Positions 3,801 to 37,826 of a stretch of 64,000 bases of DNA are shown one piece after another; positions within the stretch are counted from its first letter, which is position 1; every line of letters begins with the position of its first letter. Location: contig CAZOJE010000001.1 in the NCBI GenBank assembly GCA_964580065.1, forward strand, positions 23,717 through 87,716, in the 5' to 3' direction. Source of the DNA: an uncultured Candidatus Saccharibacteria bacterium (GTDB taxonomy: Bacteria > Patescibacteriota > UBA1384 > DTJR01). The notes below the pieces were generated by a model. The model was not told the origin of the DNA. It worked only from the letters and a program-made list of their open reading frames with translations, and searched no databases. A program made the position numbers and the translations under genes.

Positions 3801-3846
3801 GTTGTTGGGGCAAGCTAGCCAAAAGACTGTTTTGCGTCTAGGTAAA

Positions 3847-9717: not shown

Positions 9718-9724
9718 ATTTCAC

Positions 9725-10458: not shown

Positions 10459-10524
10459 AAGATTAACTTAACAAAAGTACACCACTCTTAACAAGAGTTC
10501 GATTTCTTCTGAAGATTCGGTCTG

Positions 10525-11928: not shown

Positions 11929-12100
11929 TGCCTAAACCTTAGAAATTTTCTAAGGCATGGCATAAAATCCTTCGCAGATAATGAGCTCGTCGTCAGAGCA
12001 TCTGCGAAGGTTGTGATCCGAAAGGATTGCAGGTAGCCGTAAAAAGCTATCGCTGGCGGCGGGCTTTTTGTATCCGCTTCCGGTTAATCGAGGCAAGAAA

Positions 12101-13240: not shown

Positions 13241-13264
13241 ATAGTAATTAAGATTGGGGGAAAT

Positions 13265-13846: not shown

Positions 13847-13923
13847 CCGAGTCAGAAACCTCTTCCATACCTGTTACCTTGGTGATACTATTATATAAAT
13901 AATATCAACTTATTTATAATCAA

Positions 13924-18039: not shown

Positions 18040-18048
18040 AGGACAAAT

Positions 18049-18834: not shown

Positions 18835-18840
18835 ATAATT

Positions 18841-20094: not shown

Positions 20095-20095
20095 A

Positions 20096-20296
20096 ATGCC
20101 AGAAGAAAAGACTTTTGCAGAAAAAATGAAAGAATTAGATACTATAAAGGAAAAATTTGAATCGGGAAATTTCGATTTAGAGAAAGATTTGCCGTTATAT
20201 AAGAGAGCTGTTCAGCTTGCTACCGATTTAAAAGAGCATCTGAATAAGCTCGAGAATGAGATTATAGAGATCGAAGCAAAAAAGGAAAATGAATAA
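20096..20296 (+). CDS. xseB: exodeoxyribonuclease VII small subunit
   Basis: 66-aa coiled-coil protein FAEKMKELDTIKEKFESGNFDLEKDLPLYKRAVQL, immediately after xseA. Confidence 0.85.
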   Translation: MPEEKTFAEKMKELDTIKEKFESGNFDLEKDLPLYKRAVQLATDLKEHLNKLENEIIEIEAKKENE

Positions 20297-21830: not shown

Positions 21831-22785
21831 TTTATTTTCGAGCGAACCTGCTAAAACAAATCAAAACGCTGTTTGCGTTACTAAAAGCGAAATAATTGCT
21901 GGCTCGAGATTTTCTATACCCGAGCCAACTAGGTCGTTGGTTTTTGTAACTGATGATTCTCCCGATAAAGCCCAAGCTCTAGGGCCATCAATAAGGATTA
22001 CTTTCAATCTGGGTAGTCTTGAAACCGAACGGGAGGTTGAAGAAGGAAATATTTTTTCCGAACCTAGCCTAATATGGACAAGACTTCCAATAAAACCAAA
22101 TAGTGATTTAGAAGATAAGCCAATGTATTATCCATGCTATGTCCATCTAAATCCTCTGCAGAGATATCAGTATCTTAGTTGGCTTCAGGACGTTACCAAG
22201 AAGACAAATTTGAGCTATGTCTTTTTATATTATTATGGTCTCGAAAGGCACCTATTGATCGGTGACTATGATAAAGCAGTTGATGAAATACTTAGATTAA
22301 TTAAATATCATGATCATGATAAATTTCGCTACTATGTAATTACACCACTTATCGTTGCCAGCCTGTACAGAAAGAGGGTGGATGTATTCAAAAAGGCTGA
22401 CTTTTTGTCTCGCGAGGTTTCCAATGAAGCACTGATCATGCGAGCCCTACAGAATATTCACTTAAATGCTGATGACTTGATCAAATTATCTTCATCGGTC
22501 GGGTTTAGAAATAAGAGGTATATTCATCAGAAGCCAGAATTATTTAAAGAAATTCTGATTGAAAAAATGCAAGAAGATGAAGCAAAAAGCGTCCCCATTC
22601 TCAATAGGTTCGAAATAAGTCAGCTCCAAAAGGAAAAAATATCTGCTTTTTGCAATCTATCGATCCCGGAGAGATTCAAAAAGCTTGAGACTCCCCAGCT
22701 CTTAAGGAATAAGCGCTTTGAAAAATTAATTTTCAACTTAATAACCGAAACTCACGCAGAAGTGAAGATCAGAAAAGAAGTATAA
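21814..22785 (+). CDS. TerB-N domain-containing protein (hypothetical; conflict-system associated)
   Basis: YYPCYVHLNPLQRYQYLSWLQD...SYVFLYYYGLERHLL matches, as I remember it, the TerB_N signature (Y.FLYlYGLERR). Confidence 0.5.
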   Translation: MSWLSNLFSSEPAKTNQNAVCVTKSEIIAGSRFSIPEPTRSLVFVTDDSPDKAQALGPSIRITFNLGSLETEREVEEGNIFSEPSLIWTRLPIKPNSDLEDKPMYYPCYVHLNPLQRYQYLSWLQDVTKKTNLSYVFLYYYGLERHLLIGDYDKAVDEILRLIKYHDHDKFRYYVITPLIVASLYRKRVDVFKKADFLSREVSNEALIMRALQNIHLNADDLIKLSSSVGFRNKRYIHQKPELFKEILIEKMQEDEAKSVPILNRFEISQLQKEKISAFCNLSIPERFKKLETPQLLRNKRFEKLIFNLITETHAEVKIRKEV

Positions 22786-22814
22786 CCAATTCAAAGCAAG
22801 AACAGGAGTTAAAG

Positions 22815-24413
22815 TCAAGATCTCCTATATGGCAGCCCATCTGACCCGAACTCAATCGAAGAGCTTTTGCCCGGTCCCCAAGGATGGCGATTTAATCTCT
22901 TGAACATCTCTCGATCGTCTTTGTCTCCCCAATCCTCGCCTCGTCTTTTTCCTAAAGTTCCACTAATTAGGCCATTGGTCTCAACAAACAGGACGCCACA
23001 ATTACTTGGCATTTTCTCAATTAGTCCAAGAATTAAGATGCTAAATGCATCTGCCATGTCATCATGTCTTGTTCTACCGAAATCCACGAGTTGCTTGATC
23101 AGTTCTTCGCAGCCATTTCGGGGAAAATACACTTTGCTCTGGTAAACCTTATTGGCAGCAAGTTCGAGGCGTTCTCTTTTATCTTTGCCTCTAATTTTGA
23201 CTCCAACTGCATCGATGTTGCGCTCCCTTAACTGTTGAGTCACATAGCCCTGAAGCATCGTATCTTCAACATAAAACTTATTGCTGAATCTGCCATCGTG
23301 TACTTTGCAGATATCCTCGGCACGCTCCAGAATTTCAGTAAATTTCAGGCGTGCATTGACGGGGTTTGGCAAGATATAAACTTCAAAGTTATCGCCCGAT
23401 CCAACAACTTTTGCCGAAACAAGCGAGGTAAAATCAGCTGTCGCTTTTTCGCTAATTGCCAAGTCAATTCCGGTGGCGAAACTATAGGATTGATTTCGTA
23501 AGTTTTCTGGCAGTTTATCGTAGTATTGAATCTTGTCTTCGGTAATGACACGCTCTCTGTCATCAATAATGTGAAGCAGATATTCTTTATTCCATGTTTT
23601 TTCGTCTCCAACTCGGAGTCGTTCATCTTCGACTGCCTTCAAATCCTCGTACTTTCCAGGCCAGGCAATATTGTCATACTCATCAAGAAGCGGATATTTT
23701 CTGAATATTCCCGAGAGCTTCTCGTGGACAATAAGATTTTCAAGACGCTTCAGTAAGCTGTCTTCGTGAAGCAGATTACCGACTATTATGATTTTAGTTC
23801 CCTTATCACCGAGAGGGAACACTTCGCTCGTTAACCAGTTGAAAGTACTCTCTCTGGCTTCCTGTGTTTTCACCGAATCTGTGTTCTCAACATCGTCAGC
23901 TACTATCAGGTCCGGGCGATATCGGCCGTGTCTGATGCCGCGAAAACTTTGATCCTTGGATACGGCAATGATTTTGGCGTTGTACCGGGGAATAACTAAA
24001 CTACAATTATTCCACTCATCGGTTTCTTGAAAGGGACCAAGATCACGCTTCAATAAGTCGTTTGTTTCAAGCTCGCGTTTTAAGTTTTTGAAGTGAAGTT
24101 TGGCCTGTTCGGCAGTCTGCGAGATTAATACCACAAACTTCTTTTGTGGACGTCCAACAACGGCCCAGATTGGATAGCTTAGAGTCATAAGCGTTGATTT
24201 GGCTGATCCGCGAAAACTACATATAGCGGCGAGACTTATATCATCTCGCTCAGTAATCGCAAACATTTCTTTGTGAAATTCTGCAATTTTGTACTGAACG
24301 AATGAACTTAAGTAGGTGTGAAAGAACCATACATGGCTTTTCTTGGTTAGATCTGCCCTTGTTGCTTGGTTTTTGATGATTTTACTTATTTGGTTTTTCT
24401 TTTTTCTTTTCAT
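22815..24413 (-). CDS. phage terminase large subunit
   Basis: Walker A-like SFRGSAKSTL. Walker B LIVADDVEN. C-terminal RNase H-like nuclease ATGIDLA...RHDDMADAF. Confidence 0.85.
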   Translation of the reverse strand: MKRKKKNQISKIIKNQATRADLTKKSHVWFFHTYLSSFVQYKIAEFHKEMFAITERDDISLAAICSFRGSAKSTLMTLSYPIWAVVGRPQKKFVVLISQTAEQAKLHFKNLKRELETNDLLKRDLGPFQETDEWNNCSLVIPRYNAKIIAVSKDQSFRGIRHGRYRPDLIVADDVENTDSVKTQEARESTFNWLTSEVFPLGDKGTKIIIVGNLLHEDSLLKRLENLIVHEKLSGIFRKYPLLDEYDNIAWPGKYEDLKAVEDERLRVGDEKTWNKEYLLHIIDDRERVITEDKIQYYDKLPENLRNQSYSFATGIDLAISEKATADFTSLVSAKVVGSGDNFEVYILPNPVNARLKFTEILERAEDICKVHDGRFSNKFYVEDTMLQGYVTQQLRERNIDAVGVKIRGKDKRERLELAANKVYQSKVYFPRNGCEELIKQLVDFGRTRHDDMADAFSILILGLIEKMPSNCGVLFVETNGLISGTLGKRRGEDWGDKDDREMFKRLNRHPWGPGKSSSIEFGSDGLPYRRS

Positions 24414-24882
24414 TTTCCTCTCCTTTGGAAGTAATGAGCGTGGCCAGTTCTAGTGCTTTCATAATGCTCTCTTCCTGCTCCTTAGTTAACTCATCTTTTT
24501 TGATTTCTAGACCACCCGATACCTCAAGTTTATTCTTGTAGGCGTTGTGGCGGTGATTGAGCCAATACATCACAGCGGTCAGATTATTATCTTTCATCGC
24601 TGTAATGAGCTTGCTTTCTGCCAAATCATTTATGAATTGGCAACCCTCCTCAATTGCTTTATCACTTGAAGCAGCAAATTTTTTGCTTGCTTTTCGCCAG
24701 CGATAATATGTATTTCGACTGATACCAACTTTTTGGCAAGCGACTTCGATAATTGGGGTTTTGCTGAATTGCTCAACTAGGGTTTTTTGATTTTGCGCAG
24801 TTCTGATCTGAATCTTCGAATCTACATCACTCATTTTGCCTTCTTGATCAGCTCTGACTTTTGCCCGGTGAATTTTTCCCAA
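24382..24882 (-). CDS. putative terminase small subunit (HTH protein)
   Basis: Overlaps the terminase large-subunit start. HTH CQKVGISRNTYYRWRK. Position and size are typical. Confidence 0.5.
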   Translation of the reverse strand: MGKIHRAKVRADQEGKMSDVDSKIQIRTAQNQKTLVEQFSKTPIIEVACQKVGISRNTYYRWRKASKKFAASSDKAIEEGCQFINDLAESKLITAMKDNNLTAVMYWLNHRHNAYKNKLEVSGGLEIKKDELTKEQEESIMKALELATLITSKGEENEKKKEKPNK

Positions 24883-26159
24883 CGATTTCTAATCACCTCG
24901 GCATAGATCGGACACTTTTCCATTACATAACAGCGACGCTTGAGTGTTTCCGCAGCAATCAAGGTGCTTCCAGATCCGCCGAAGGGTTCGATAATAAGGT
25001 CATCTCTTTTGGTGAGAACCTTGATGTACGGAATGAGGATTTCAACAGGTTTTGTGCCGAAAATAATCGCTTGCCCCGTACTTTTCTCATCGCCAGCTTT
25101 CGATTCAATCACATCGGTGGGACAATACTGCTTGCCTTTTTCATATCCTTCCCACTGAGCATCGCCCGATGTGGCAAACAGTGCCGTCTGATACTCATTT
25201 TGCAGCAGCTCTTCTTCGGGTTCAAGATTCAACTGTTTACCGGGCGTTGTACCAACTACTGCGATGTCATATTTAGAGAAGAATTTGTGCTTAGCGGAAT
25301 ATCCTTGATTTCTATTTGGAATTTTCCAAATAATCATATTGCGGATAGTCCAAAATTTTTCCATCGCTCCCCATAGCTCACGGACATTTTTCCAGTTCTC
25401 AAAGGCAATGATATTGAAGTTTTCATTTTGGACCTTGGCAACGTTGGCCGTCCAGAGTTCAATGAAATCAGGCGGAAGCTCGTCAGTACCAATATATTTT
25501 CTGTTTTTCTTGGCTCCGAACCCGTCTGTCGGTTTGCCGTGACGCTTTCCCTGGAGGTAATTGAGAACATATGGCTCATCAGTGAAACACATGTCGGCTT
25601 TCTCGCCATTCATTAGCTTGATAATGTCATCTTCTACCATGCTGTTTCCGCACATCAACCTGTTTTTGCCGAGGATGTATGTATCTCCCGGTTCAATTTC
25701 TATCTTTGAAATCTTGAGCTTTTCAAGTTCACGATTTACGTCGAATTGTTCTGGCTCTGTTTCGATATCAAAGATATCGTCAAGTTCTTCCGAATCAAAT
25801 CCGACATCAGCTAGAAATCTTTCGTCAAATTCGGCGAGAAGTTTGAAGTCAAATTCTCCCGTGTTGCGATTTAATCGCAAGTTGAGCTCTTTTTCTTTTT
25901 CGATGTCTGCGATATCGACATAGACAACAGGAACTTTTTCAATTCCAATTTCTTTGGCTGCGACAACTCTCATGTGCGCACCAATTATTATATTCTTGCG
26001 ATTTGGATTTGAGTTGACGATCGCTGGATCAACGAATCCAAATTTCTTGATACTTTCCTTCAGGTCAGAAAGTTGTTTATCATTCCATTTTCTTGGATTG
26101 TAATCGCTAGCGATCAAATCCTTAGTTGATACATATTCTATTTTGTGTGTGTTGTTCAT
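24831..26159 (-). CDS. ParB-like nuclease domain fused to an N6/N4 DNA methyltransferase (beta class)
   Basis: ParB N-terminus LIASDYNPRK...L..SI...GFVDPAIV. Methyltransferase motif IV-like FTDEPYV and motif I EPFGGSGSTLIAA, in beta-class order. Confidence 0.85.
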   Translation of the reverse strand: MNNTHKIEYVSTKDLIASDYNPRKWNDKQLSDLKESIKKFGFVDPAIVNSNPNRKNIIIGAHMRVVAAKEIGIEKVPVVYVDIADIEKEKELNLRLNRNTGEFDFKLLAEFDERFLADVGFDSEELDDIFDIETEPEQFDVNRELEKLKISKIEIEPGDTYILGKNRLMCGNSMVEDDIIKLMNGEKADMCFTDEPYVLNYLQGKRHGKPTDGFGAKKNRKYIGTDELPPDFIELWTANVAKVQNENFNIIAFENWKNVRELWGAMEKFWTIRNMIIWKIPNRNQGYSAKHKFFSKYDIAVVGTTPGKQLNLEPEEELLQNEYQTALFATSGDAQWEGYEKGKQYCPTDVIESKAGDEKSTGQAIIFGTKPVEILIPYIKVLTKRDDLIIEPFGGSGSTLIAAETLKRRCYVMEKCPIYAEVIRNRWEKFTGQKSELIKKAK

Positions 26160-26185
26160 AGATACTCCTTATTTTTTAGTTAATA

Positions 26186-26216
26186 ACAAAAAACCCACAC
26201 TTGATGGTGTGGTTTT
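26186..26216. terminator. bidirectional Rho-independent terminator (AAAAAACCCACAC-TTGATG-GTGTGGTTTTGT)
   Basis: Stem CCACAC/GTGTGG flanked by an A-run and a T-run. Confidence 0.6.
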
Positions 26217-26366
26217 GTAGGCTCGACCCTTAAATACAAAAACACACCTAACTCGCGATAACTAAATTCGCCTTTAGTTGTGCTTTTGCAGTTCTGGGGT
26301 TTCCTTACTGTGCAAAAACTATTTTCTTAATTTTCAATTTACATTCAAATAATACTCTACTACTGC

Positions 26367-26537
26367 TTACCGTTTTTTGTCAAGTTTTTGTTTGCTAATA
26401 TTCTCAATGGCCTTAGTAAATATCATATCGAATGCTTGTTCGATGTTCCAGTCAGCCCTTGCTTTCTCTTCCGGACTTAAAGAGTCGTAAATATTTTCGT
26501 AAACGATTTCAAGTTTCTTCGGCTTTTTCTTTTTCAT
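26367..26537 (-). CDS. small basic hypothetical protein (56 aa, MKKKKPKKLEIVYENIYDSLSPEEKARADWNIEQAF...). It is not in the supplied ORF track.
   Basis: ATG..TAA ORF on the minus strand overlapping the upstream gene by about 29 nt. Protein-like composition. Confidence 0.25.
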   Translation of the reverse strand: MKKKKPKKLEIVYENIYDSLSPEEKARADWNIEQAFDMIFTKAIENISKQKLDKKR

Positions 26538-26769
26538 TTAAGTAGAATTTGATCGTTTTGCCTACAATCTCAATCTTGCCTTGATTCGTCAGTTCTTTGT
26601 AAGCATCCTGAAAAGTTATATTTTTTTCGACAATCATTTTGTTTAACATGTGATAAAGAGCGAGAGGAATTTCATATCCCTCAACTTTTAAAGCTTTATA
26701 CCACGAAGATGTAGTTTTATATTTGTCCATATCCATTTTTACATTATACACGTCTAGTATTTTATTCAA
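26509..26769 (-). CDS. hypothetical protein (prophage remnant)
   Basis: 86-aa ORF in the leftward gene string. Confidence 0.4.
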   Translation of the reverse strand: MNKILDVYNVKMDMDKYKTTSSWYKALKVEGYEIPLALYHMLNKMIVEKNITFQDAYKELTNQGKIEIVGKTIKFYLNEKEKAEET

Positions 26770-26796
26770 CCAAGGAGCTCAACGATATTGTTGTTC

Positions 26797-27315
26797 TTAG
26801 TTCGAGAAGGAAATACTAGAGAGAACCGTTTTAAGATCTCTGTCTATATTCCACCCTGAGAAATCATTGCTCAAAAAACTAATTTCATAGTATCCAGTAT
26901 TATCTGGAAGCTCATAAATGTAAGCATAGTAAAAAACTGCTGCGTCGCCATCGCCATACGCCAGAAATTTTTTATCACCAAAGATTGTGGTTATCAGATA
27001 CTCCTGTGGTAGTGGTCCGCCAGTTGTTTTAATATTTTCTTTATCAAAAGGTGAATCTTTGAATTCATAAGAAATACAATCATCAAGACCTTGCTTGTTT
27101 GGTTTAGAGCAAAGATATCTCGCCCCTTTAATTTCTTTGGAATCAACAAGGTGTTGTGGATATTTAAAGCTAATCAACTGATCAGAATAAGTTTTCCAAA
27201 AAAGTTGGGTATTTTGCGTCAATTCGAAATAAATAACATAAAGAAAAGCTATTGAGAGAATAATTATGCCGATAAATATAAACAGTGGTTGTTTTCTCAC
27301 ACTTCCATTATACAA
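26797..27315 (-). CDS. hypothetical membrane-anchored protein
   Basis: N-terminal TM helix LFIFIGIIILSIAFLYVIYF. Confidence 0.4.
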   Translation of the reverse strand: MYNGSVRKQPLFIFIGIIILSIAFLYVIYFELTQNTQLFWKTYSDQLISFKYPQHLVDSKEIKGARYLCSKPNKQGLDDCISYEFKDSPFDKENIKTTGGPLPQEYLITTIFGDKKFLAYGDGDAAVFYYAYIYELPDNTGYYEISFLSNDFSGWNIDRDLKTVLSSISFSN

Positions 27316-27356
27316 CTTTATTTGCCTGATTCTATTAAATCGCTTATGATTTACTT

Positions 27357-28412
27357 ATGGATCAAGAACAAGAAGGTAAAGTTAGTGAACAGCAGCAAAA
27401 ATGGAAGGCTCCGAAGTTTAAGCAAAGTCTTAAAATCAACCCCAAACTCCAGGTAGAAATTAAGCAGCAAGAAGAAAGACAAGAAGCAGCGGATCAGCTT
27501 AGGGCGGACGAGGTTCGTCGATCAATCGGACTACCAACAGTGGAAGCAGCACAGCCTCCAAAACCTAAGAGCCGACGGGACTTATTTGTCGAACAAATAG
27601 AGGAAGCGACACAAGCACCTGATAGTGCACAACGAATTGCACTGGCAAGGCAAGTAATATCAACAAGATTAGCTGAATTGAAGGATCATCAAATGGCGGT
27701 CGAGACCATACAGCCCGTATTTGGGACTATGAAAGGCGAAAAATTTAAATACGATGGTTTTATTGGAGAAACTACTAAGATTAAAAGAGGCGCCAGTGCG
27801 GAATTCCAGCTTGACGACGAGACGGCGTATTTAGATTTTGCCGACACCTTGCAAGAAGTAAGAGCTCAGATTGGAGATAAATCCATCGGAGATTATCTAC
27901 CTTATGCTGTCTTTAGACATATTGGAAAGTATTTTGGCAATTATGTTTCAAATAACCAAACCGAATCTTCAAATCAAGCATTTTATGCCGAACAGGCTGA
28001 TAAGATCGATCTAGGCGAAGCGGCAAAAACATCAATCAGTGATATGAAGGGAATGGGTATTGCGGTGTGTGCCGAAAAAGCAGCTTTGGCTCAAAACCTT
28101 TTCCAAATCGCTGGAATGGAATCGAAGCTGGTTTCGGGTGGCGTATCTGGCGGGCAAGAACAATCAGGCCTCGGGCATTATTATAATATTATCAGCTCCG
28201 AAAATGGGAGTTATCTGGTTGATGTGACAAATCCAGTGGTTTACAGTCGAGAAGGCCAAATGGTTAATTTTAACCCATCAATCTACCCGCTCACACAGGA
28301 TCAAATGGCTTCCCTGGAAGGCATAAAACCGATTGAGGTCACGCATACCGATTATGAAATAGGTGATGATAATTCTCTAACTCCGAGAGAAACAAAGCTT
28401 ACTTACTCTTAA
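27357..28412 (+). CDS. hypothetical protein; possible papain/transglutaminase-like Cys-His-Asp fold in the C-terminal half
   Basis: GIAVCAEKAALAQNLF ... GLGHYYNII ... LVDVTN has the spacing of a Cys/His/Asp triad. Weak. Confidence 0.4.
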   Translation: MDQEQEGKVSEQQQKWKAPKFKQSLKINPKLQVEIKQQEERQEAADQLRADEVRRSIGLPTVEAAQPPKPKSRRDLFVEQIEEATQAPDSAQRIALARQVISTRLAELKDHQMAVETIQPVFGTMKGEKFKYDGFIGETTKIKRGASAEFQLDDETAYLDFADTLQEVRAQIGDKSIGDYLPYAVFRHIGKYFGNYVSNNQTESSNQAFYAEQADKIDLGEAAKTSISDMKGMGIAVCAEKAALAQNLFQIAGMESKLVSGGVSGGQEQSGLGHYYNIISSENGSYLVDVTNPVVYSREGQMVNFNPSIYPLTQDQMASLEGIKPIEVTHTDYEIGDDNSLTPRETKLTYS

Positions 28413-28569
28413 TTCTGAATCTTTTTTTATACTGTAACATTGTGTAACATTTCGGATTGAAAAAATCGCCCCTATAAGGTATAGTGATTGAGGTATCAGT
28501 GCTAGACCGGAGTAGGGTACCATTTCTTATATAGTAAATTTTTCTTAAATTTTAACGGCAAGGAGAAGA

Positions 28570-29244
28570 ATGGGTGAATTTCTAACAGATCAGAGTCAAA
28601 GAGAGCTGTGGGAAAAACAGCATTTAGAGAGAGCGGAAGAACACGAGGAGCTTGAAGATACTCCAAATGAGTTTGGCAAAGAATGTGTACATCTTATTCC
28701 GGAAAATGGCATTGTTCTGGAAATCGGGGCGGCAAATGGCAGGGATGCAAGATACTTCGCAAAGGAAAAAGGGTGCAAAGTTGTTGCAACCGATTTTTCC
28801 GAAGTTGCTGCCGGCCATCTCAAGAGCGCAGCTACCAAGGATGGCACTGGCTCTCATGTTTATCCCGTAGTCGCAGATGTGAGAAACCTGCCCATAACTC
28901 AAAAAGAGAATTTCGATGCAGTATATGCTAGATCGTCGCTTCATCTAGATGATGAAGAATTAGACAGATTTTTGGATGAGGTTGCTGTAGTTCTGAAACC
29001 CGGCGGTTATTTAATGATAGAGGGGAAACCAAAAGAAGATCCAAAGATTTCACGAAGCGAAGAGGTTAAAGCAAACATGCACATGGATTATGACGGTCAT
29101 TTACGTCGTGCCTGGTCAGAGGAGGGAATTAAAAAAATCGTAGATAAATTAGGATTTGAGCTTGTTTCAATCAACCGCTCAACAGAAACATGGCATGGCG
29201 TCGAAACACATTTTATTAATTTTATAGCAAAAAAACATGAATAA
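28570..29244 (+). CDS. class I SAM-dependent methyltransferase
   Basis: Motif I VLEIGAANGRDARYFA. Acidic motif II VVATDFS. Confidence 0.8.
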   Translation: MGEFLTDQSQRELWEKQHLERAEEHEELEDTPNEFGKECVHLIPENGIVLEIGAANGRDARYFAKEKGCKVVATDFSEVAAGHLKSAATKDGTGSHVYPVVADVRNLPITQKENFDAVYARSSLHLDDEELDRFLDEVAVVLKPGGYLMIEGKPKEDPKISRSEEVKANMHMDYDGHLRRAWSEEGIKKIVDKLGFELVSINRSTETWHGVETHFINFIAKKHE

Positions 29245-29782
29245 TCTTGAATCAAGACCAATCATATCGGCAATATTATTAAAGTATGAAAACGGACAAG
29301 GTTTCGTTTATTTACAGGAACGATGGAAACCCAAAGTAAGTCCTACTTATTCGGGAATGCTGGAAATCCCTGCCGGTGGTATTGATGCATATGAGAATGT
29401 TTATGATGCACTCACAAGAGAGGTAGAGGAAGAGTGTGGCCTGAAGATCACTAAGATTATCGGCGATTATAAGAGTGAAATAATCCAGCCCAGAGAGAAA
29501 GACAAATCATTTGTATTCAAACCGTTCATTTGTCAACAAGTATTGGAAACAGACAATGGTTTGCCATGGATCGGTTTCGTATTTGTCTGCCTTACCGAAG
29601 GGGAGATAAAAATTAATCCAGACGAAGCGCGAAATCCTCAATGGGTTAGTCTGGATCAGTTGAAAGAAATGCTAGATAGAGATAAAACACAATTTTTCCC
29701 GCTCCAGTTGCCTGTCTTACAATATCTGTGCAAAAATATTGAATCGATATCTCAAGGACTCGGAGCCGACATAACAACCTGA
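29237..29782 (+). CDS. NUDIX hydrolase
   Basis: Nudix box GGIDAYENVYDALTREVEEECGL. Confidence 0.85.
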   Translation: MNNLESRPIISAILLKYENGQGFVYLQERWKPKVSPTYSGMLEIPAGGIDAYENVYDALTREVEEECGLKITKIIGDYKSEIIQPREKDKSFVFKPFICQQVLETDNGLPWIGFVFVCLTEGEIKINPDEARNPQWVSLDQLKEMLDRDKTQFFPLQLPVLQYLCKNIESISQGLGADITT

Positions 29783-30011
29783 ACTTGTCATTCAACCTAA
29801 AAGGGCTATGCGGGGTTTGCCCCGCAGAATATAACGGCGTGGGGTGTACCGTGAAAGTTTACTGAAGAGGTATATAGTGGTCAGCAAATTTTAAAACAAG
29901 AAAACTTGCGGAAGATTTTGAAAAGTATTTAAAAAGTTCATCAGGCTTTGCCTTTTGAAATAAAAGATTAATTTGACCCCACCCAGGAAGGTTGGAACTT
30001 TTTTCAAAAAT

Positions 30012-30043
30012 GAAAAGTCGGGCTGCAGTCCCGACTTTTTCAT
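30012..30043. terminator. bidirectional terminator (AAAAGTCGGGCTGCAGTCCCGACTTTTT) between convergent genes
   Basis: 10-bp stem with A-run and T-run flanks. Confidence 0.7.
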
Positions 30044-30045
30044 AC

Positions 30046-30576
30046 TTAACTACAAAACACGCCTCGCATTGGAGTGTCGCATTTCGGACATTTAGTTTGT
30101 GAGCAAGGAATCCCTCTGACGTGGGCAACTTTTTCGCCACAGTTTGGACAGGTGCACTCGGCGCTTCCGCCTGCTTTTCGTCCTAACGAATTTTGTCTTC
30201 TTCCTATCCCTCTACCGGCGCCCCTACCCATTCCTCGTCCGGTCATCGGACCTTGGCCTTGTGGCCCAGTTCCATCTAAATTTGGCATTATAATATCACC
30301 TCCCTTCAATTGAATACTTTTTCCAAATATTAAACTCGTAGCAACCTTTCTGTGTGCGCTATGCAAAACATTCAAATAAGTAATTCTGGCAATCCCCATT
30401 TTTTTTGATGCTGTTTCTTGGTCTAAATTTTCAATATCAGATAAACGCAAAGCTTCTACCTCGTCTAATGTCAGTACTTCCTCTTGCAGCTCGCGAAGTG
30501 GAATGCCCGCTGGTTTGAAATAGGTTATCTCGGGTATAAAACTTACAAATCTTTTTCTTTTTGGTCTGCCTCTCAT
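30046..30576 (-). CDS. DUF134 (sigma-70 region-4-like HTH) protein fused to a C-terminal DUF5320-like Gly/Cys-rich domain
   Basis: MRGRPKRKRFVSFIPEITYFKPAGIPLRELQEEVLTLDEVEALRLSDIENLDQETASKKMGIARITYLNVLHSAHRKVA is DUF134. MPNLDGTGPQGQGPMTGRGMGRG...CPNCG...CPKC is DUF5320-like. SD AAAGGAAAA sits before the internal ATG. The upstream 34 codons of the track ORF are probably not translated. Confidence 0.65.
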   Translation of the reverse strand: MRGRPKRKRFVSFIPEITYFKPAGIPLRELQEEVLTLDEVEALRLSDIENLDQETASKKMGIARITYLNVLHSAHRKVATSLIFGKSIQLKGGDIIMPNLDGTGPQGQGPMTGRGMGRGAGRGIGRRQNSLGRKAGGSAECTCPNCGEKVAHVRGIPCSQTKCPKCDTPMRGVFCS

Positions 30577-30824
30577 AATTTTCCTTTCGTGCAATACTAA
30601 TTTATAACATATGTCATAAATTATCAATAGTAAGCAGATTAGTAGGATAAGTTCTAATGCGATTTGTGGACGGAACACAAACCTAAACCTTTTTTAAAAT
30701 ATTGATCGCCGTTGCAAAAAACGACGAAAGAATTATTTCTTTACCGAGCCGTGGTATGCTTCAGACTAAAAATTAGCGTTTTGGGATTAGTTTCTGTGAT
30801 GGTAAAATAAAGATAAGGAGGATT

Positions 30825-31301
30825 ATGGGCGAAGAAAATATATTGGTCAAAAAAGGTATATCGATTGGAACGGTTGTTCTAATTATTGTACCTATCGCTA
30901 TTATTTTTGGCGGTGGCGTTTATGTTTATATGAATGATAAAGCAACAAAAGACAAAAATGATTTAAATTCCCAAATCAGTCAGCTGGAGAGTCAAGTTTC
31001 TGCCTTACGGACGACGGTAACTCCGGGTCCAGCTGGTACTGTTTCAGCTACTATTTCGACGACCGCGTCATCTACCTCGGCAGAGCTGACAAAAGACCAA
31101 GCGCTGGCAAAAGTTAAAGATTTGCCCGAAGTAAAAACTTATCTCGCGAAAAACAGTAAAAACGTCGCTGAATTTGATCATGAAGACGCGCCAACAAATT
31201 CTTGGGTGATACATGTTTTTTATAATGGTCCCGATTTAACAGCCACATTTAACTGGTATAGCGTAAATAAAGTAACAGGCGATATCACCAAGACTTTCTA
31301 A
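30825..31301 (+). CDS. membrane-anchored hypothetical protein
   Basis: TM helix ISIGTVVLIIVPIAIIFGGGVYVY followed by a coiled-coil and a Thr/Ser-rich linker. Confidence 0.5.
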   Translation: MGEENILVKKGISIGTVVLIIVPIAIIFGGGVYVYMNDKATKDKNDLNSQISQLESQVSALRTTVTPGPAGTVSATISTTASSTSAELTKDQALAKVKDLPEVKTYLAKNSKNVAEFDHEDAPTNSWVIHVFYNGPDLTATFNWYSVNKVTGDITKTF

Positions 31302-31430
31302 CAAAGGAAGAGTTCTTGGTGAAACGTTCCCTAGGATTTCTTTGTCAAAAGTATATTTGTTTTGATATAATAAAAACCAAAGAGCGATTGGAAATTTCGT
31401 TGAGATAATAATTTCAAGTAATGGATATCT

Positions 31431-34400: not shown

Positions 34401-35636
34401 AAACAAAGCGGGGCTACCGCTTCGAGTAGTAACTACTACTGTGGCTTGAATCATGGCACTTATGCCATCGATAGTGATCCGGATACAAACTGGTTCCCGC
34501 TATATGACGGCTCGATAATTCCGTCTTTTACCAACCCTACTGGTAATAATCCGGAATGGCTGCAGGTTAATTTTGCCAATGGAGCGACTAAAAATATTAA
34601 CCAAATTGTGGTGCGGTCGTATAAACCAAAATATTATGCCGATGCCAACGATGTGCTGGCGGATTTTGATTTACAATACTGGGATGGATCTGACTGGCAA
34701 CTCATAGAGAGTGTTACTGGTAATGATGATGAGAACCTGACTTTGGATTTTCCCTATGTAAGCACTAATAAAATCCGTTTAGTGGCAAAATATGGTTTGT
34801 ATGTTTCGGAAATTGAGGCCTATCACGTCAACTATACTCCAACACTTGATAATATCGGAAATAAAAATATTGTTGTCGGAGAGAATTTGTCTTTCAATGT
34901 TTCTGGCAGTGATCCCGAAGACGATACTTTGATTTATTCGGCCAGCAATTTGCCGGAAGGCGCCACTTTCGATGCTCTAACGCATAGTTTTTCCTGGGCC
35001 CCAACAGATTCACAAGTCGGCACTTATACGACAGTTAGATTTACCGTAAGTGACGGCACCGCTTCGGCTTCGGAAGATATCACTATTACTGTTTATGAAA
35101 ATGTGGCCGAGGCCTTAGCTGGTAATGATGACGCAGAAATAGATTTGTTCGAGAGTAGAAGCGTTGAATCGACAACGGAAAAAATAAATCTCGCTCCTAT
35201 CTTGTCGGCTATCGGTAATAAACGCGTAATGGAGCAGACTAGACTTTCTTTCACTGTATTCGCTTCTGATCCCGAAGGCGATACATTAACTTTTTTGGCT
35301 AGTAATTTGCCTCATGGCGCCCGTTTTGATACCGACAATCATAGTTTTTATTGGACGCCATCTGCTAATCAAGTTGGCGAATACGGCGCAGTCACATTTA
35401 CTGTCAGTGATGGACGAAAAAGCGTTTCTGAATCAATTAATATTACCGTTGAACCAAAAAGTATTGTTTCGGAAGTAATTTCTGGCATCAGTAAAATTTT
35501 TTCTCCCCAAAGTAATAACAACGGATCAGCCCAAGGTTCTAACAATGGTTGGATTGTTTTTGCAATCGCCGCTTTGCCGATAACAGGAGCACTTGTGACA
35601 GGGACTATTTATTTAAGGCGATTAATAATGCGATAG
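31431..35636 (+). CDS. giant cell-surface protein: signal peptide, right-handed beta-helix repeats, TIM-barrel-like middle region, F5/8 type C (discoidin) domain, two He_PIG/Ig-like repeats, C-terminal TM anchor
   Basis: Parallel beta-helix repeat motifs (NNVRVAFFEKWAAVSNCNIHDN...). Discoidin-like YYCGLNHGTYAIDSDPDTNWFP...NINQIVVRSY...IRLVAKYGLYVSEIEAY. Duplicated ...LSFNVSGSDPEDDTLIYSASNLPEGATFDALTHSFSWAPT...FTVSDG. C-terminal IVFAIAALPITGALVTGTIYL followed by RR. Confidence 0.75.
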   Translation: MAKFYLNRNFSQVLSVFLVCLVAAVVALWAIRGTRAADTFTYYVRTDGADTNDGLSNSAEGAFKTITKAAEIVNVGDTVLVQAGTYDEQVTLSKSGTESSRITFEGVGAVIIEGGTRVNAVVISGAYNTFKNIEVQHGQTGISVQNANVTIDGCHIHNTSSSYYGAISGDSATIVTNSEINNNVRVAFFEKWAAVSNCNIHDNTGGLSYRQLSSSPRIEIKNNIFTDNQWTFSIYSGDQNKDVLFEGNEFNGGGGFEFSNGKITLIDNSFHDINGPVINLAYYGTPSATDAFIDHNLFDSCNPVLAMYNGITTMFSDDNVFTSDTVISNWQSPEAAAGSWTSAEVGTLPDWQTNSGQDSNSVIGTSLSDTTKSTAYVTSWTVSPILDSNGLNIKFSGTMASRETFTAKLQFSVTDESNNVYTATVNNFNLTAEESSNFDQNVIIPQITGQVLCKLDILDGTDTRVGGKFKYLTSPSAVEVDWLNPSYRASIFTRQTDKEVRVKVTITSENINLSTWSVHAGIRLKNEVDWQQENIFTAAAELTVNLPGGGLAIGSYELVTTLLDDSSVKIDETIMDLTVLAQADNEVRIDENGTILINEEPFFPISIDGDTNQISDFLSFADAGFNVANLYRWNGDNNFWNAIDQTDLKILYIGIVANLLTESQYTTEQKLEFLNSAADTINSLKNHTSFLGYLWGEELVWKNELVSLYQQNAVLDPYHPVAMNGSFSGANSLYYIADIMMNHLYPYPKYSDNAAQVAAKIGNIGDISDANIAVSNGEDIDASFPGLHLAVGKKPWWIWPQYFYGGNWVSGGGGRFLTLTEMRDYIWTEIARGAKGVHFWAYFHDYTNPRMNPKLWESVRAIAGEVRSLEKVLVQTDAANVVSADSTTDLSMKVKEYQGNKYIFATYNGSTAKKIKFYFSSAQSGNIAVWSENRTLSIADNAFEDDFEPTSVHIYTTAAADNNVKMKSLLADSYFADRLSYQAKAGNFASKQSGATASSSNYYCGLNHGTYAIDSDPDTNWFPLYDGSIIPSFTNPTGNNPEWLQVNFANGATKNINQIVVRSYKPKYYADANDVLADFDLQYWDGSDWQLIESVTGNDDENLTLDFPYVSTNKIRLVAKYGLYVSEIEAYHVNYTPTLDNIGNKNIVVGENLSFNVSGSDPEDDTLIYSASNLPEGATFDALTHSFSWAPTDSQVGTYTTVRFTVSDGTASASEDITITVYENVAEALAGNDDAEIDLFESRSVESTTEKINLAPILSAIGNKRVMEQTRLSFTVFASDPEGDTLTFLASNLPHGARFDTDNHSFYWTPSANQVGEYGAVTFTVSDGRKSVSESINITVEPKSIVSEVISGISKIFSPQSNNNGSAQGSNNGWIVFAIAALPITGALVTGTIYLRRLIMR

Positions 35637-35728
35637 ATTTTTTTGTCTATTTTAGCGCACACATATTCATTTTTGTCCTGTTTTATGTTAAGATCTTCAC
35701 TGTAAAAGAGGGGAGAGTTGGTTTTTTT

Positions 35729-35781
35729 GGGCCAGTAGCTCACGGGTTGTGTCGGTTGCCTCTTAAGCAACTTGTCGAGGG
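35729..35781 (+). pseudogene. 5' fragment of tRNA-Lys(CTT) with a mutated D-arm (pseudo-tRNA, 53 nt)
   Basis: GGGCCAGTAGCTCAcGGGTtGtGtcGGTTGCCTCTTAAGCAACTTGTCGAGGG compared with the intact gene at 35952: identical except for the D-loop. Ends where the T-loop would begin. Confidence 0.6.
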
Positions 35782-35828
35782 CTTGAGTGGGTGGAACGCT
35801 CAAGTGCCGGACCGAGTGAGCTAGCGAA

Positions 35829-35877
35829 CGAGGGAGGCGGGGGTTTCGAGGGTGGAACTCGAAACTGCGGCGCACTC
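35829..35877. repeat. second copy of the 47-nt hairpin motif (identical to 4400-4447)
   Basis: Exact identity. Preceded by a related hairpin CTTGAGTG-GGTGGAAC-GCTCAAG with the same loop sequence. Confidence 0.7.
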
Positions 35878-35951
35878 GTTGACAAAAAAATATCGCGCCG
35901 ACTTGTGACCGATCCCCAAGGGGATCGAACATTATAAATATATGTTAGTTT

Positions 35952-36026
35952 GGGCCAGTAGCTCAGTGGTAGAGCGGTTGCCTCTTAAGCAACTTGTCGA
36001 GGGTTCGATCCCCTCCTGGCCCTCCA
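35952..36026 (+). tRNA. tRNA-Lys (anticodon CTT)
   Basis: GGGCCAG-TA-GCTC-AGTGGTA-GAGC-G-GTTGC-CTCTTAA-GCAAC-TTGTC-GAGGG-TTCGATC-CCCTC-CTGGCCC-T-CCA. Confidence 0.85.
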
Positions 36027-36062
36027 AGCAAGTACCCCACGCAAGTGGGGTTTTTGCTTGGA
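36025..36062 (+). terminator. Rho-independent terminator after tRNA-Lys (CCCCACGCAAGTGGGG + TTTTT, with outer CCAAGCAA/TTGCTTGG)
   Basis: Hairpin followed by a T-run. Confidence 0.6.
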
Positions 36063-36153
36063 GTGATTTTGGCGCGGGGATCGAAGGCCGCAGGGCTGAC
36101 TGAGTCCGAGGCCCGCCCCGAAGAAATTTCAGCAGAAATTTACTGAGGGGGAG

Positions 36154-36170
36154 CCCCTCCTGGCCCTCCA
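36154..36170 (+). repeat. 17-19 nt duplicate of the tRNA-Lys 3' end (CCCCTCCTGGCCCTCCAA); att-like remnant
   Basis: Identical to the tRNA 3' terminus, 130 bp downstream of the intact gene. Confidence 0.55.
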
Positions 36171-36427
36171 AACCTATTTTGCGCAAGCAAGGAGGTTTGT
36201 CCTCCGTCTTGTCTATCATAGCTTCATGCGAAGATGGAAGCTCTAAAGAGCGTAGGACGGACTACCCATAACCCATAACTTTACGTGAAGAAGAACATTC
36301 TAAACCTAGAGTTTGCCGCCTAATACAGATAGCTTTTTATTCGAGTAATTGGAGACAATGACCAAAATTTTTGAAAGTAAAAGGGACCTACTTAGTAGGT
36401 CCCTGTGTACAGCTTCTCGTGCTGCAA

Positions 36428-36778
36428 CTAGTCCTCGAACTCGAGGGCAACGCGCCTGATGCGGCGGAACCGGACGAACCGGAACCCTTGGCCGCGCGCG
36501 CCCCAGAAATCGACCTTGGCCGGATCGTTTTCTTCGACCGATTCCGACCAAAGCGGCTTGACACCCTCATGACAGAGCACCGCGATGACCGAGAGGGGGG
36601 CCACGACCACCAGATCGTCGAACCCGCCCTGTTCGTATCGGGTAGCAATCTGCCTAGCGTCATCGAACGGCTTCGAATCCTGTTCGATGATTGTATCGGC
36701 GCCGTACATCTTTTGCAGCGCCTTGATCTGTCGAGGGTGTGGCTTGTGTCGCGACATCCACAAGATCTTTTTCGACAT
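36428..36778 (-). CDS. GC-rich hypothetical protein (strong GC3 bias; foreign-looking)
   Basis: MSKKILWMSRHKPHPRQIKALQKMYGADTIIEQ...GGFDDLVVVAPLSVIAVL.... Third-position G/C dominates the codons. Local GC is above 60% against about 38% background. Confidence 0.4.
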   Translation of the reverse strand: MSKKILWMSRHKPHPRQIKALQKMYGADTIIEQDSKPFDDARQIATRYEQGGFDDLVVVAPLSVIAVLCHEGVKPLWSESVEENDPAKVDFWGARGQGFRFVRFRRIRRVALEFED

Positions 36779-36964
36779 CTGTGTCCCTCCGGTTCGACGG
36801 GTTTGTGCGTTTAGACAGCTAAAAATCTTACTATAAAAATAGCGTTTTGTCTACTTCGCGAATTAGATCATCAGAAATGTTACCGAAATGTTCGCCCGTT
36901 AGCTCATTAACAATGTTACCGTAATTTGGGATAATCTCCGGTCAAACAATCGATAAGACAGGAG

Positions 36965-37180
36965 ATGAAAATGATGAACAAAATGAGCAAAAGAGAGTAT
37001 TTGCGGGAGCTGAAAAAGAGATATCGTAAAGCAAGCAAGAAGCGCAAAACCCAGCTTTTGAATGACTTTTGTACGTTCACTGGCTATCACCGGAAATCAG
37101 CTTTGCGGTTGATTAATAATCGTTTACCAAGTCAATTAGGTAATTTTGTGAAATGTTTTAATTTGGGCGCTGATATTTAA
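36965..37180 (+). pseudogene. truncated transposase/integrase N-terminal HTH fragment (71 aa)
   Basis: MSKREYLRELKKRYRKASKKRKTQLLNDFCTFTGYHRKSALRLI resembles the N-terminal HTH region of DDE-type integrase-core transposases. The ORF stops after 71 aa with no catalytic domain following. Confidence 0.35.
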
Positions 37181-37226
37181 GCGCCTATTGCGAGTAAAAT
37201 TTTATTCGATAAAGTAAATTATAGAT

Positions 37227-37634
37227 ATGAAAAAAATTATTGTTTTTGGATCGTTCGACCCTCTCCATCAAGGTCATTTGAATTTTTTTAATCAGGCAAA
37301 AAAACTTGGTGATTATTTAATTGTTGTGGTGGCGCGAGATGAAAACATTAAAAAAAATAAGAATAGGGAAGTGAGATTTGGCGAAGATGAACGAATGAAA
37401 GCTGTTGAAGCAACACAAATTGCCAACGAAGTGATGTTGGGAGACGAGAGCGATAGCTACACAATCCTTGAAAAAATTAATCCTGACGTTATTGCTGTCG
37501 GTTATGATCAAAAAATCCCCGAGGTCTTGAAAAATAAGGTTAAAAAGTATAAAATTGTCACGTTGAAGCCGTTTAAGCCGGAAATTTTTAAATCGAGTAA
37601 GATGATAAATTCGGATAACGGCCCCATCGTCTAG
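37227..37634 (+). CDS. cytidylyltransferase-family nucleotidyltransferase (HxGH motif; RibL/TagD-like). Its 3' end overlaps tRNA-Glu by about 15 nt.
   Basis: IIVFGSFDPLHQGHLNFF...YLIVVVARDE. Confidence 0.75.
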   Translation: MKKIIVFGSFDPLHQGHLNFFNQAKKLGDYLIVVVARDENIKKNKNREVRFGEDERMKAVEATQIANEVMLGDESDSYTILEKINPDVIAVGYDQKIPEVLKNKVKKYKIVTLKPFKPEIFKSSKMINSDNGPIV

Positions 37635-37694
37635 TGGTCAGGACACCAGGTTTTCATCCTGGCAACCGGGGTTCGACTCCCCGTGGGGTCACCA
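37620..37694 (+). tRNA. tRNA-Glu (anticodon TTC)
   Basis: GGCCCCA-TC-GTCT-AGTGGTCAGGAC-ACCAGG-TTTTCAT-CCTGG-CAAC-CGGGG-TTCGACT-CCCCG-TGGGGTC-A-CCA. Confidence 0.85.
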
Positions 37695-37739
37695 ATTGAA
37701 TTCGTGAGAGGAATAGGTTTTTGTTCCACCCAAAAACCG

Positions 37740-37798
37740 CATCCTGGCAACCGGGGGTTTCGAGAGTGGAGCTCGAAACTATCCCCGTGGGGTCACCA
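37740..37798 (+). repeat. duplicate of the tRNA-Glu 3' half in which the T-loop is replaced by a GTTTCGAG-AGTGGAG-CTCGAAAC hairpin (a relative of the 47-nt motif)
   Basis: CATCCTGGCAACCGGGGG[TTTCGAGAGTGGAGCTCGAAACTA]TCCCCGTGGGGTCACCA compared with the tRNA CATCCTGGCAACCGGGG-TTCGACT-CCCCGTGGGGTCACCA. Confidence 0.65.
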
Positions 37799-37826
37799 GT
37801 TCGCCGCCTTTTTTGGCGGTTTTTTG

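Follow-up and report, generated by a model that had tools for sequence, protein, structure and literature searches.

A tRNA-Lys(CTT) gene flanked by two members of a lineage-specific family of mosaic elements in an uncultured Candidatus Saccharibacteria bacterium

The tRNA-Lys(CTT) gene and its flanks

We analyzed a stretch of 64,000 nucleotides (hereafter the window, or W) from an uncultured Candidatus Saccharibacteria bacterium (contig CAZOJE010000001.1) and focused on its tRNA-Lys(CTT) gene, which is separately terminated and flanked by two members of a lineage-specific family of mosaic elements. Coordinates are positions in the 64-kb window, and labels of the type L020 designate contigs of related genomes or metagenomes used for comparison. 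The gene lies between displaced copies of its own 5′ and 3′ parts, and the intervals that separate it from them are built from short modules:

35729-35781, plus strand: displaced 5′ fragment of tRNA-Lys(CTT), tRNA positions 1-53 (repeat alignment)
35781-35805, plus strand: hairpin h1 (9-bp stem, GGTGGAA loop), directly adjoining the final base of the 5′ strand of the T stem
35806-35829, plus strand: linker GCCGGACC..., with GTGAGCTA at 35816-35823
35830-35880, plus strand: 51-nt repeat GAGGGAGGCGGGGG-hairpin-CTGCGGCGCACTC, 98% identical to 4400-4450; hairpin hp1 (GGTGGAA loop) at 35842-35866
35881-35909, plus strand: right arm of the upstream mosaic element, terminal CTTGTGAC; 95% identical to the right arm in L025 and 92% to that in L026
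35910-35930, plus strand: CGATCCCC (tRNA positions 56-63), AA and the inverted copy GGGGATCGAAC
35931-35951, plus strand: AT-rich leader, with -10-like box ATTATAAAT 12-18 nt before the tRNA
35952-36026, plus strand: intact tRNA-Lys(CTT) gene with encoded CCA (ARAGORN; Rfam, 72.4 bits)
36022-36063, plus strand: trailer hairpin, a site resembling an intrinsic terminator (stem 36034-36051, then TTTTT)
36064-36150, plus strand: downstream mosaic element, variant B, with homologous modules in L001, L027, L020 and L018
36151-36170, plus strand: displaced 3′ fragment of tRNA-Lys (end of the T loop, T-stem 3′ strand, 3′ acceptor strand and CCA)

A first, sequence-only reading of this DNA had described a 53-nt copy of the tRNA 5′ part, altered only in the D loop and 170 bp upstream of the gene. 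Our alignment bears this out, as all 42 positions beyond an 11-nt D-loop block (35743-35753), which is replaced, are identical to the gene and the gap between the two is 170 nt. The anticodon arm, the variable loop and the 5′ strand of the T stem are thus those of the gene, and the copy ends exactly with the last base of that strand (GAGGG), i.e., G53. Six of eight leader bases are also common to the pseudo-copy and the gene. No tRNA was called at 35729-35781 by ARAGORN, nor by Rfam even at E≤10; the cloverleaf is incomplete, with no 3′ acceptor strand and a broken D stem. The same reading had placed a perfect copy of the last 17-19 nt of the tRNA at 36154-36170, where we found a perfect match of 17 nt that stretches to 36151-36171 at 95% identity (one mismatch). 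The inner end of this fragment lies near C56, at the end of the T loop, and 124 nt separate it from the gene. With the 5′ fragment running up to the last base of the T-stem 5′ strand and the 3′ fragment taking over from the end of the T loop, the pair make up complementary halves of a single tRNA-Lys gene that is split in its T loop, and the intact gene sits between them. This is the geometry of genomic islands at tRNA genes (tDNAs): a full tDNA accompanied by cognate fragments of like orientation, of which the 5′ one lies upstream and the 3′ one downstream, and inner ends that coincide with known crossover positions, namely the T loop at tRNA-Lys and the anticodon loop at tRNA-Glu (below). 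The locus nevertheless falls outside the definition of an island, which calls for an integrase and 2-200 kb, because the intervals are shorter than 200 nt and no integrase is present; neither the 170-nt nor the 124-nt interval holds an open reading frame (ORF) with a family match.

Short repeats of this kind could in principle have misled the assembler. Among Logan contigs, those of two runs start or stop at 36161 and another one breaks off at 37738; each position borders a tRNA-fragment repeat. These repeats are, however, shorter than the usual assembly k-mers (k=31), so the contig breaks may reflect population variation rather than repeat collapse. Furthermore, two independent assemblies from other samples are colinear across the locus with only three gaps, L048 (JGI) with 37671-32427 at 98.7% identity and L046 (ENA) with 37007-34863 at 98.1%, and both carry the 5′ fragment unchanged. 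The arrangement is, therefore, not an assembly artefact; the mis-assembly about which the sequence-only reading had cautioned can be set aside, and we give a chimeric origin only the slightest probability.

The modules of the upstream interval are tightly packed. The linker motif GTGAGCTA is complementary to TAGCTCAC in the pseudo-copy (35736-35743), and both pair in the minimum-free-energy fold; the linker is missing from L045, where the D arm of the pseudo-copy is intact. The 51-nt repeat contains the 47-nt hairpin motif noticed earlier, and its core has 100% matches in L002, L021 and L039. A T-arm-like palindrome had been noticed as well and was confirmed as the perfect 16-nt palindrome GATCCCCAAGGGGATC at 35911-35926, within the CGATCCCC/GGGGATCGAAC segment. 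The sequence CGAAC-ATT(T)A(T/C)AAT that leads into the gene is kept in W, L045, L020 and L029, although the -10-like box went uncalled in a sigma-70 scan because there is no -35 match. On the other side of the gene, the downstream element comprises TTTGG followed by an inverted T-arm copy, GGGGATCGAAGGCCG (36076-36090), a CCCC/GGGG stem and the hairpin AAATTT-CAGCAG-AAATTT (36124-36141). The stem of this second hairpin fully covaries in L020 (CCCCGC-TAGCAG-GCGGGG), and 36064-36170 as a whole is an ordinary member of the second variant of the family. Folding z-scores of the element regions range from -2.9 to -3.9. When searched with Rfam 15, the whole window at the gathering threshold and 35600-36450 at E≤10 returned only tRNAs and the LOOT RNA, with no match to the elements; within 35600-36450 the matches were to tRNA alone, a weak YrlA hit (24 bits against a 69-bit threshold) overlapping the real tRNA.

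A family of hairpin mosaics at tRNA genes

The same architecture recurs at many tRNA genes of related genomes, so that the locus represents a recurring kind of tRNA-site DNA and not a one-off scar. The family is lineage-specific and consists of GC-rich, non-coding elements of ~130-190 nt whose hairpins combine an invariant GGTGGAA loop with variable stems. A hairpin-pattern search retrieved three stretches in species-representative genomes (from two metagenome-assembled genomes, one of them of Berkelbacteria) and 30 in metagenome contigs; viral contigs had no match to the hairpin pattern or to the CAGCAG module. In the 284 kb formed by the window and the fetched loci we counted 61 pattern hairpins against ~1 in shuffled sequence, as expected of short repeated extragenic palindromes. 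The 61 hairpins comprise 33 distinct sequences with at least 13 unrelated stems. Their closing G-C pair is invariant and the loop is constant save for a coupled switch of its first and last bases, from G..A to A..G. Seven of the eight stem pairs vary on both sides, 98.9% of the cells are paired and only three of 264 cells are G-T pairs, though these counts are partly circular because the hairpins were chosen for pairing; the meaningful evidence is their excess over shuffles and the diversity of their stems. More than half (34/61) are no farther than 250 nt from a tRNA gene, and DNA this close to tRNA genes amounts to ~13% of that examined; the 34 occur at no fewer than 10 tRNA types, mostly downstream and on the tRNA strand. 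Others are found away from tRNAs, and the loop can be on either strand, as in orthologous sites of W and L020 where it is flipped.

Better-preserved copies follow a fixed order of modules. The tRNA with its CCA is followed by a long trailer hairpin, TTTGG with the inverted T stem and T loop of the local tRNA, GCCGGA, a variable small hairpin, GAGGCGGGGG, a GGTGGAA hairpin, either the CAGCAG-loop hairpin or an alternative arm, CTTGTGAC and, finally, the last ~21 nt of the local tRNA, repeated in direct orientation. Downstream copies of their own last 16 nt were found for nine tRNAs, and inverted copies of their own T loop and T stem for 10 of 53, as compared to 1.3% for non-cognate pairs (15-fold). 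Many copies are truncated, nested or decayed. Within the window, tRNA-Glu(TTC) and tRNA-Arg(TCT) (4235-4311) carry members of the family:

37620-37694, plus strand: intact tRNA-Glu(TTC) gene (ARAGORN, Rfam)
37716-37738, minus strand: hairpin with GGTGGAA loop (TTCCACC in tRNA sense), 22 nt past tRNA-Glu
37740-37798, plus strand: copy of the tRNA-Glu 3′ half, anticodon loop to CCA, with its T loop replaced by a hairpin (37756-37780)
37801-37826, plus strand: intrinsic terminator closing the tRNA-Glu unit
4312-4450, plus strand: mosaic element after tRNA-Arg(TCT), truncated by loss of the right arm; 91% identical to the L025 element

The hairpin inside the tRNA-Glu copy is GTTTCGAG-AGTGGAG-CTCGAAAC. 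The corresponding unit of L020, a member of a different genus, is laid out in the same way; its stems differ, the loop lies on the other strand and the T stem has a compensatory change. The position of the 37716-37738 hairpin is also kept in L020 with a different stem. The tRNA-Arg(TCT) element contains a trailer hairpin (4312-4349), an inverted T-arm copy plus GCCGGA (4350-4378) and the 51-nt repeat (4400-4450). The window has five hairpins that combine an 8-9-bp stem with a loop of GGTGGAA or AGTGGAG, and none is more than 150 nt away from tRNA-Lys, tRNA-Glu or tRNA-Arg(TCT).

A 5′ pseudo-copy upstream of an intact gene was present at four other loci, tRNA-Arg(TCT) of L020, tRNA-Arg(TCG) of L029 and L032 and tRNA-Lys(TTT) of L045. 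The remark in the sequence-only reading that a 5′ partial duplication is unusual is correct in general (159 of 3919 islands; PMC4383910), but in this clade such duplications recur. The junction is common to these loci, the T-stem 5′ strand leading directly into CTTGAGYGGGTG (GG followed by CTTGAGYGGGTG), and elements of the 5′ type end in an inverted T-arm copy, CGAAC and the -10-like box ATT(T)A(T/C)AAT located 12-18 nt before the gene. The D-loop region of the pseudo-copy differs each time: it is substituted in W, carries a 20-nt insertion in L032 and a nested GGTGGAA hairpin in L029, and is intact in L045. The anticodon arm of the pseudo-copy is of the TTT type in L045 and of the CTT type in the window, in each case as in the neighboring gene; pseudo-copy and gene, therefore, co-vary.

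At the homologous position, the related strain of L045 (minus strand, 3330-3601) has tRNA-Lys(TTT) where the window (35729-36026) has tRNA-Lys(CTT), and the two differ in the anticodon arm alone (7/17 nt), in gene and pseudo-copy. Its left flank is the native neighborhood of tRNA-Lys(TTT) (DnaJ/DnaK, as in L014 and L022) and its right flank is that of the window, indicating either a recombinant locus or else a chimeric contig. At L032 (11870-11950), just upstream of a tRNA-Arg(TCT), lies a tRNA-like sequence with a Gln-type anticodon loop, an abnormal T arm and unpaired acceptor strands, which ARAGORN did not call. A match to TTGTGACCGA at L032 11108 fell inside a coding region and was rejected as a chance hit.

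Hairpins with these properties could belong to structured RNAs transcribed with the tRNA, mimics of tRNA halves in which a protein-binding hairpin replaces the T loop (or the D or anticodon loop), with possible roles in precursor processing, 3′-end protection, regulation or as decoys for tRNA-targeting enzymes. Consistent with this, the stems covary around an invariant loop whose end bases switch in concert, the CAGCAG-loop hairpin has wholly different complementary stems in W and L020, and the folding z-scores are low. Furthermore, the tRNA-Glu architecture is kept between genera with a compensatory T-stem change, its element is placed between the tRNA and the terminator, and fragments and pseudo-copies track the local tRNA, down to the CTT or TTT arm. 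Several observations speak against such RNAs, however. The pairing that defines the set is partly circular, G-U pairs are nearly absent, the loop flips at orthologous sites and the hairpins occur on both strands and away from tRNAs. Moreover, one element is present or absent between strains that are 99% identical, many copies are decayed or nested, the tRNA-Lys element is placed after a terminator-like hairpin and Rfam has no match. We consider this explanation unlikely. Less probable still are tRNA mimics that combine the exact arm of the neighboring tRNA with a GGUGGAA hairpin in the elbow loops and act as decoys or regulators, or the entry of hairpins at the RNA level followed by reverse transcription; both retain a small probability because the elements are conserved between genera, show compensatory changes and have a CTT/TTT arm that co-varies with the gene.

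Other ideas were discarded. A T-loop intron, whether of group I or of archaeal type, does not fit an insert that holds a whole tRNA gene and terminator, and the group I introns of Patescibacteria tRNAs are anticodon-loop introns, hence irrelevant here. T-box-like UGGN:NCCA pairing by the hairpin loop was dismissed because the loop is constant across discriminator bases, and CRISPR-like repeats or guide RNAs because many copies show interruptions or decay in the segments that match the tRNA.

Strain variation and foreign genes in the tRNA flanks

The 3′ flanks of tRNA genes are demonstrably plastic in this genome. The clearest case is the flank of tRNA-Arg(TCG), for which L025, 99.2% identical to the window over 28515-31352 and 100% over 9700-9801, provides an alternative arrangement:

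9802-28496, no strand: strain-variable island of ~18.7 kb directly 3′ of tRNA-Arg(TCG) (9725-9801), absent from L025

In L025, a 40-nt module and a 21-nt scar lie between tRNA-Arg(TCG) and the flank at 28523, together with a 187-nt mosaic element whose end is GTCCTGCCAGGGGTACCA and whose borders are 8-nt GGGT(G/A)CCA repeats. The window is without the 187-nt element and has, instead, the ~18.7 kb between tRNA-Arg(TCG) and the scar shared with L025, whose 21-nt match is significant when alignments are compared to shuffles. The right junction of the island is CTAGACCGGAGTAGGGTACCA (28497-28522 region), and its gene content comprises, besides a large serine recombinase on the minus strand (10525-11928), terminase-like genes, a ParB-methylase and a helicase-nuclease. 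In the recombinase, the domains Resolvase, Recombinase and Zn_ribbon_recom all scored above threshold; these domains and the presence or absence of the region between strains identify it as a large-serine-recombinase island. This enzyme is the only recombinase of the island, and only tyrosine integrases are known to target tRNA genes (PMC4383910). A LOOT RNA (RF03000, 93.6 bits) at 11929-12051 (plus strand) lies exactly between the start of the recombinase gene and a 390-aa ORF at 12068-13240. Whole-module differences also separate other orthologous loci, as in L001 and L023 or in W and L045.

These differences bear on whether any dedicated mobility is needed. Tandem duplication of the tRNA, fold-back or template switching at the T and D arms, gene conversion and colonization by palindromes could together have produced a similar locus. 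The inverted copies of the local T arm adjoin the gene, the junction is a perfect 16-nt palindrome, pseudo-copy and gene share leader bases and co-vary, and the junctions fall in the most conserved tRNA sequences, all of which agree with such a history. It leaves unexplained, however, the spread of a 51-nt core with 98% identity and of the module order to three tRNA loci here and to many tRNA types elsewhere, as well as the clean presence or absence of the 187-nt unit between strains. We regard an origin without dedicated mobility as doubtful.

Gene content after the tRNAs varies as well. Six tRNAs that are in the same order span 2.8 kb in L020 (minus strand 1460-4201) and 34 kb in the window (3582-37694), where nearly every tRNA is followed by genes that are extra relative to the compact L020 cluster. 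The interval from tRNA-Lys to the cytidylyltransferase gene holds native AT-rich genes in L020 and, in the window, a GC-rich ORF and a transposase stub:

36428-36778, minus strand: 116-aa ORF, compositionally foreign (GC 0.59; GC at third codon positions, GC3, 0.76, against 0.37-0.39 in neighboring genes)
36382-36404, minus strand: intrinsic terminator of the 116-aa ORF
36965-37180, plus strand: 71-aa ORF, probable N-terminal remnant of a DDE (rve-type) transposase

The sequence-only reading had noted a strong GC3 bias in the 116-aa ORF, which our values uphold, and a GC content of over 60%, which we measured at 59%. The ORF belongs to a family of at least 144 proteins with 55-77% identity and has no match in Pfam, PHROGs, NCBIfam or PDB sequences. 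Its AlphaFold model (predicted local distance difference test score of 93) has a small alpha/beta fold with no significant Foldseek match in the PDB. In GC-rich contigs (L040-L042), homologues are the first gene of an operon that also encodes a bpMoxR AAA+ ATPase and a VWA protein, and in low-GC genomes the homologue is an isolated GC-rich island. Thus, the foreign composition proposed for this ORF stands, but its suggested tie to the tRNA fragments does not, as homologues elsewhere show no linkage to tRNAs. In L008, a 59-nt copy of the 3′ end of the ORF (5228-5286) is found 1.8 kb downstream, bracketing a pair of methylase genes. The 71-aa ORF corresponds to the N-terminal regions of 1645 proteins, which supports its description as a truncated transposase. 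The one long relative checked (P0247, 438 aa) shows an rve core whose score (E=4e-5) does not reach the Pfam threshold. The 71-aa ORF had no direct family hit and a word-index homologue search returned only itself. Judged from sequence, its identity as the truncated N-terminus of a transposase is plausible.

The flanking ORFs and the island at tRNA-Arg(TCG) raise the possibility that the locus is the footprint of repeated integration and excision, as put forward in the sequence-only reading; each interval would be a large island or prophage that collapsed when internal deletion fused its left and right attachment sites (attL and attR) and left the ORFs behind. The tDNA geometry and the plasticity of the 3′ flanks agree with that proposal, as do the genuine 18.7-kb island, the foreign ORFs next to tRNA-Lys and the precedent of partial tRNAs as relics of old integrations. 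Yet the intervals hold no integrase or cargo but ordered, conserved elements, and independent deletions would not yield one ordered 130-190-nt architecture at many loci. The downstream element of tRNA-Lys(CTT) is also present in L020, where the 3′ fragment matches that genome's own tRNA and native AT-rich genes occupy the position of the ORFs. In the window, the 116-aa ORF lies beyond the fragment-bounded interval, with no further tRNA-Lys fragment past it. Because the element is already in another genus and the ORFs are outside the fragment-bounded intervals, the element is older than the ORFs and unrelated to them. A collapsed island is, in our estimation, improbable; we explain the 116-aa ORF and the transposase stub as foreign sequences that are distinct from the elements and entered the same plastic flank.

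The segment 3657-4234 holds a four-helix-bundle ORF (~3846-4195) between tRNA-Gly and tRNA-Arg, flanked by a 61-nt GTTAGT-rich tandem repeat (3675-3796) and its inverted complement (4196-4228), and has the appearance of an inserted cassette. For an ABC transporter next to the locus, the best named match is from candidate division WWE3 (73% identity); the host is a member of the Patescibacteria.

Interpretation and relation to known systems

We tentatively favor, at somewhat less than an even chance, an interpretation of the units as miniature, non-autonomous elements that integrate in tRNA genes, or relics of them, overgrown by REP-like hairpins (REP, repetitive extragenic palindromic). We prefer it because units are present or absent between strains, copies are truncated and nested, the palindromes are nearly perfect with hardly any G-T pairs, and the loop flips between strands. 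The fragments with their T-loop boundaries, the recurrence at many tRNA types, the strain variation and the hairpin covariation are direct observations; that the elements move by recombination, which enzyme moves them and whether each event was an insertion or a deletion are inferences. The upstream unit would consist of the old 5′ part (1-53), the element and 8 nt of T loop plus T stem, and the downstream unit of an inverted T-arm copy, the element and the old 3′ part (~56-76). A site-specific recombinase supplied in trans could recombine the elements in the T loop or, at tRNA-Glu, in the anticodon loop. The incoming element would then rebuild a working gene, the upstream type bringing a -10-like box and a 5′ part and the downstream type a 3′ part and a terminator hairpin, while the displaced fragment would stay on the far side, following the logic of tRNA-gene genomic islands without cargo. 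The presumed building blocks, REP-like hairpins with a GGTGGAA loop, would also settle in the D, anticodon and T loop positions of dead tRNA copies, and gene conversion could then keep close repeats alike. If the units are mobile, empty sites are predicted to read GGTTCGATCCCCTCCTGGCCCTCCA joined to AACCTATTTTG or, for the left flank, TTGGTTTTTTT joined to the full tRNA, and a circular form should have CTTGTGAC joined to the left end of the element.

Several points weigh against miniature elements. No recombinase is tied to them; the only one in the window is the serine recombinase within the 18.7-kb island, and no tyrosine integrase, reverse transcriptase or Y1 transposase domain was found in 38 window ORFs. 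No circular form was seen, and the comparison with related genomes, which the sequence-only reading had recommended as a way to find the unoccupied site, revealed no empty site for the tRNA-Lys locus itself. A resemblance by eye between the ends of the island and those of the mosaic elements was not significant against shuffles, except for the 21-nt scar. Rebuilding a gene requires arms specific to each tRNA, yet one core serves at least 10 tRNA types, and the model gives no account of such re-templating. The pseudo-copy anticodon arm follows its neighbor (CTT in W, TTT in L045). Lastly, the conservation of the Lys and Glu downstream elements between genera, the tracking of their own tRNA and the compensatory change fit selection no less than gene conversion, and the conservation and co-variation would fit a functional RNA equally.

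Patescibacteria have tiny genomes with few recognizable mobile elements and yet variable gene content, and the locus points to a route for it. tRNA genes, notably their T loops and 3′ ends, appear to be hot spots of DNA gain and loss, and a family of hairpin mosaics of less than 200 nt marks such sites and may mediate the changes. If mobile, these would be the smallest tRNA-gene-integrating elements known to us and a handle for finding the recombinase that moves DNA in the phylum; should they be RNAs, they would represent tRNA mimics of a new class. In practice, such tRNA fragments and pseudo-copies can mislead the annotation of tRNAs and interrupt assemblies.

Displaced tRNA fragments are well known. 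By contrast, we found in Rfam and the literature no family of elements shorter than 200 nt conserved at many tRNA types, no loop-invariant hairpins in the loop positions of dead tRNA copies and no paired 5′ and 3′ fragment types around one gene. Nor did literature searches on tRNA-linked repeats, miniature inverted-repeat transposable elements (MITEs) of the candidate phyla radiation and T-loop insertion elements turn up a description of this family. Absence from these searches does not prove novelty, but the family is apparently undescribed.

The closest parallels are each partial. Past tyrT and a few other tRNA operons of Escherichia coli lie tandem units that end in the last ~19 nt of the tRNA. 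The units described here also end in a copy of the tRNA 3′ end, but they contain loop-conserved hairpins, an inverted T-arm copy and 5′ fragments, none of which is known from those simple tandem repeats. Enterobacterial REPs and the bacterial interspersed mosaic elements (BIMEs) they form are short repeated extragenic palindromes arranged with short motifs in mosaics whose modules differ between strains; REPs have a conserved stem sequence and a flanking GTAG, and a REP-associated tyrosine transposase (RAYT) has been implicated. Repeated palindromes here similarly combine into strain-variable mosaics. Unlike REPs, however, the loop is invariant and the stems vary, the hairpins are concentrated at tRNA genes and tRNA fragments are built in; among 38 window ORFs there is no Y1 (RAYT) transposase. 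MITEs have terminal inverted repeats, a short target-site duplication and a related autonomous transposon; here, the inverted arms are local tRNA copies, there is an 8-nt GGGT(G/A)CCA border repeat (L025/W) and no autonomous partner was found.

The partial tRNAs of Prochlorococcus tycheposons have been interpreted as relics of past, successive and degenerate integrations (bioRxiv 10.1101/2020.12.28.424599). As with tycheposons, the genome is streamlined, tRNA genes are hot spots of gene gain and partial tRNAs accompany them; unlike tycheposons, which have tyrosine recombinases and cargo, the units are shorter than 200 nt, built of hairpins and conserved in architecture. A further likeness is to the genomic islands of tRNA and tmRNA genes (Williams, 2002; Islander), with which they share an intact gene next to a cognate fragment in the same orientation, boundaries in the T or anticodon loop and the rebuilding of the gene. 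Islander, which requires an integrase and 2-200 kb, places crossovers at the T/acceptor junction or in either the T or the anticodon loop; 3′ fragments mark 3760 of its islands and 5′ fragments 159 (PMC4383910). In contrast to those islands, the intervals here are 124-190 nt long and have no integrase or cargo, one non-coding core occurs at many tRNA types, the unit includes an inverted copy of the local T arm, and 5′ and 3′ types flank one and the same gene.

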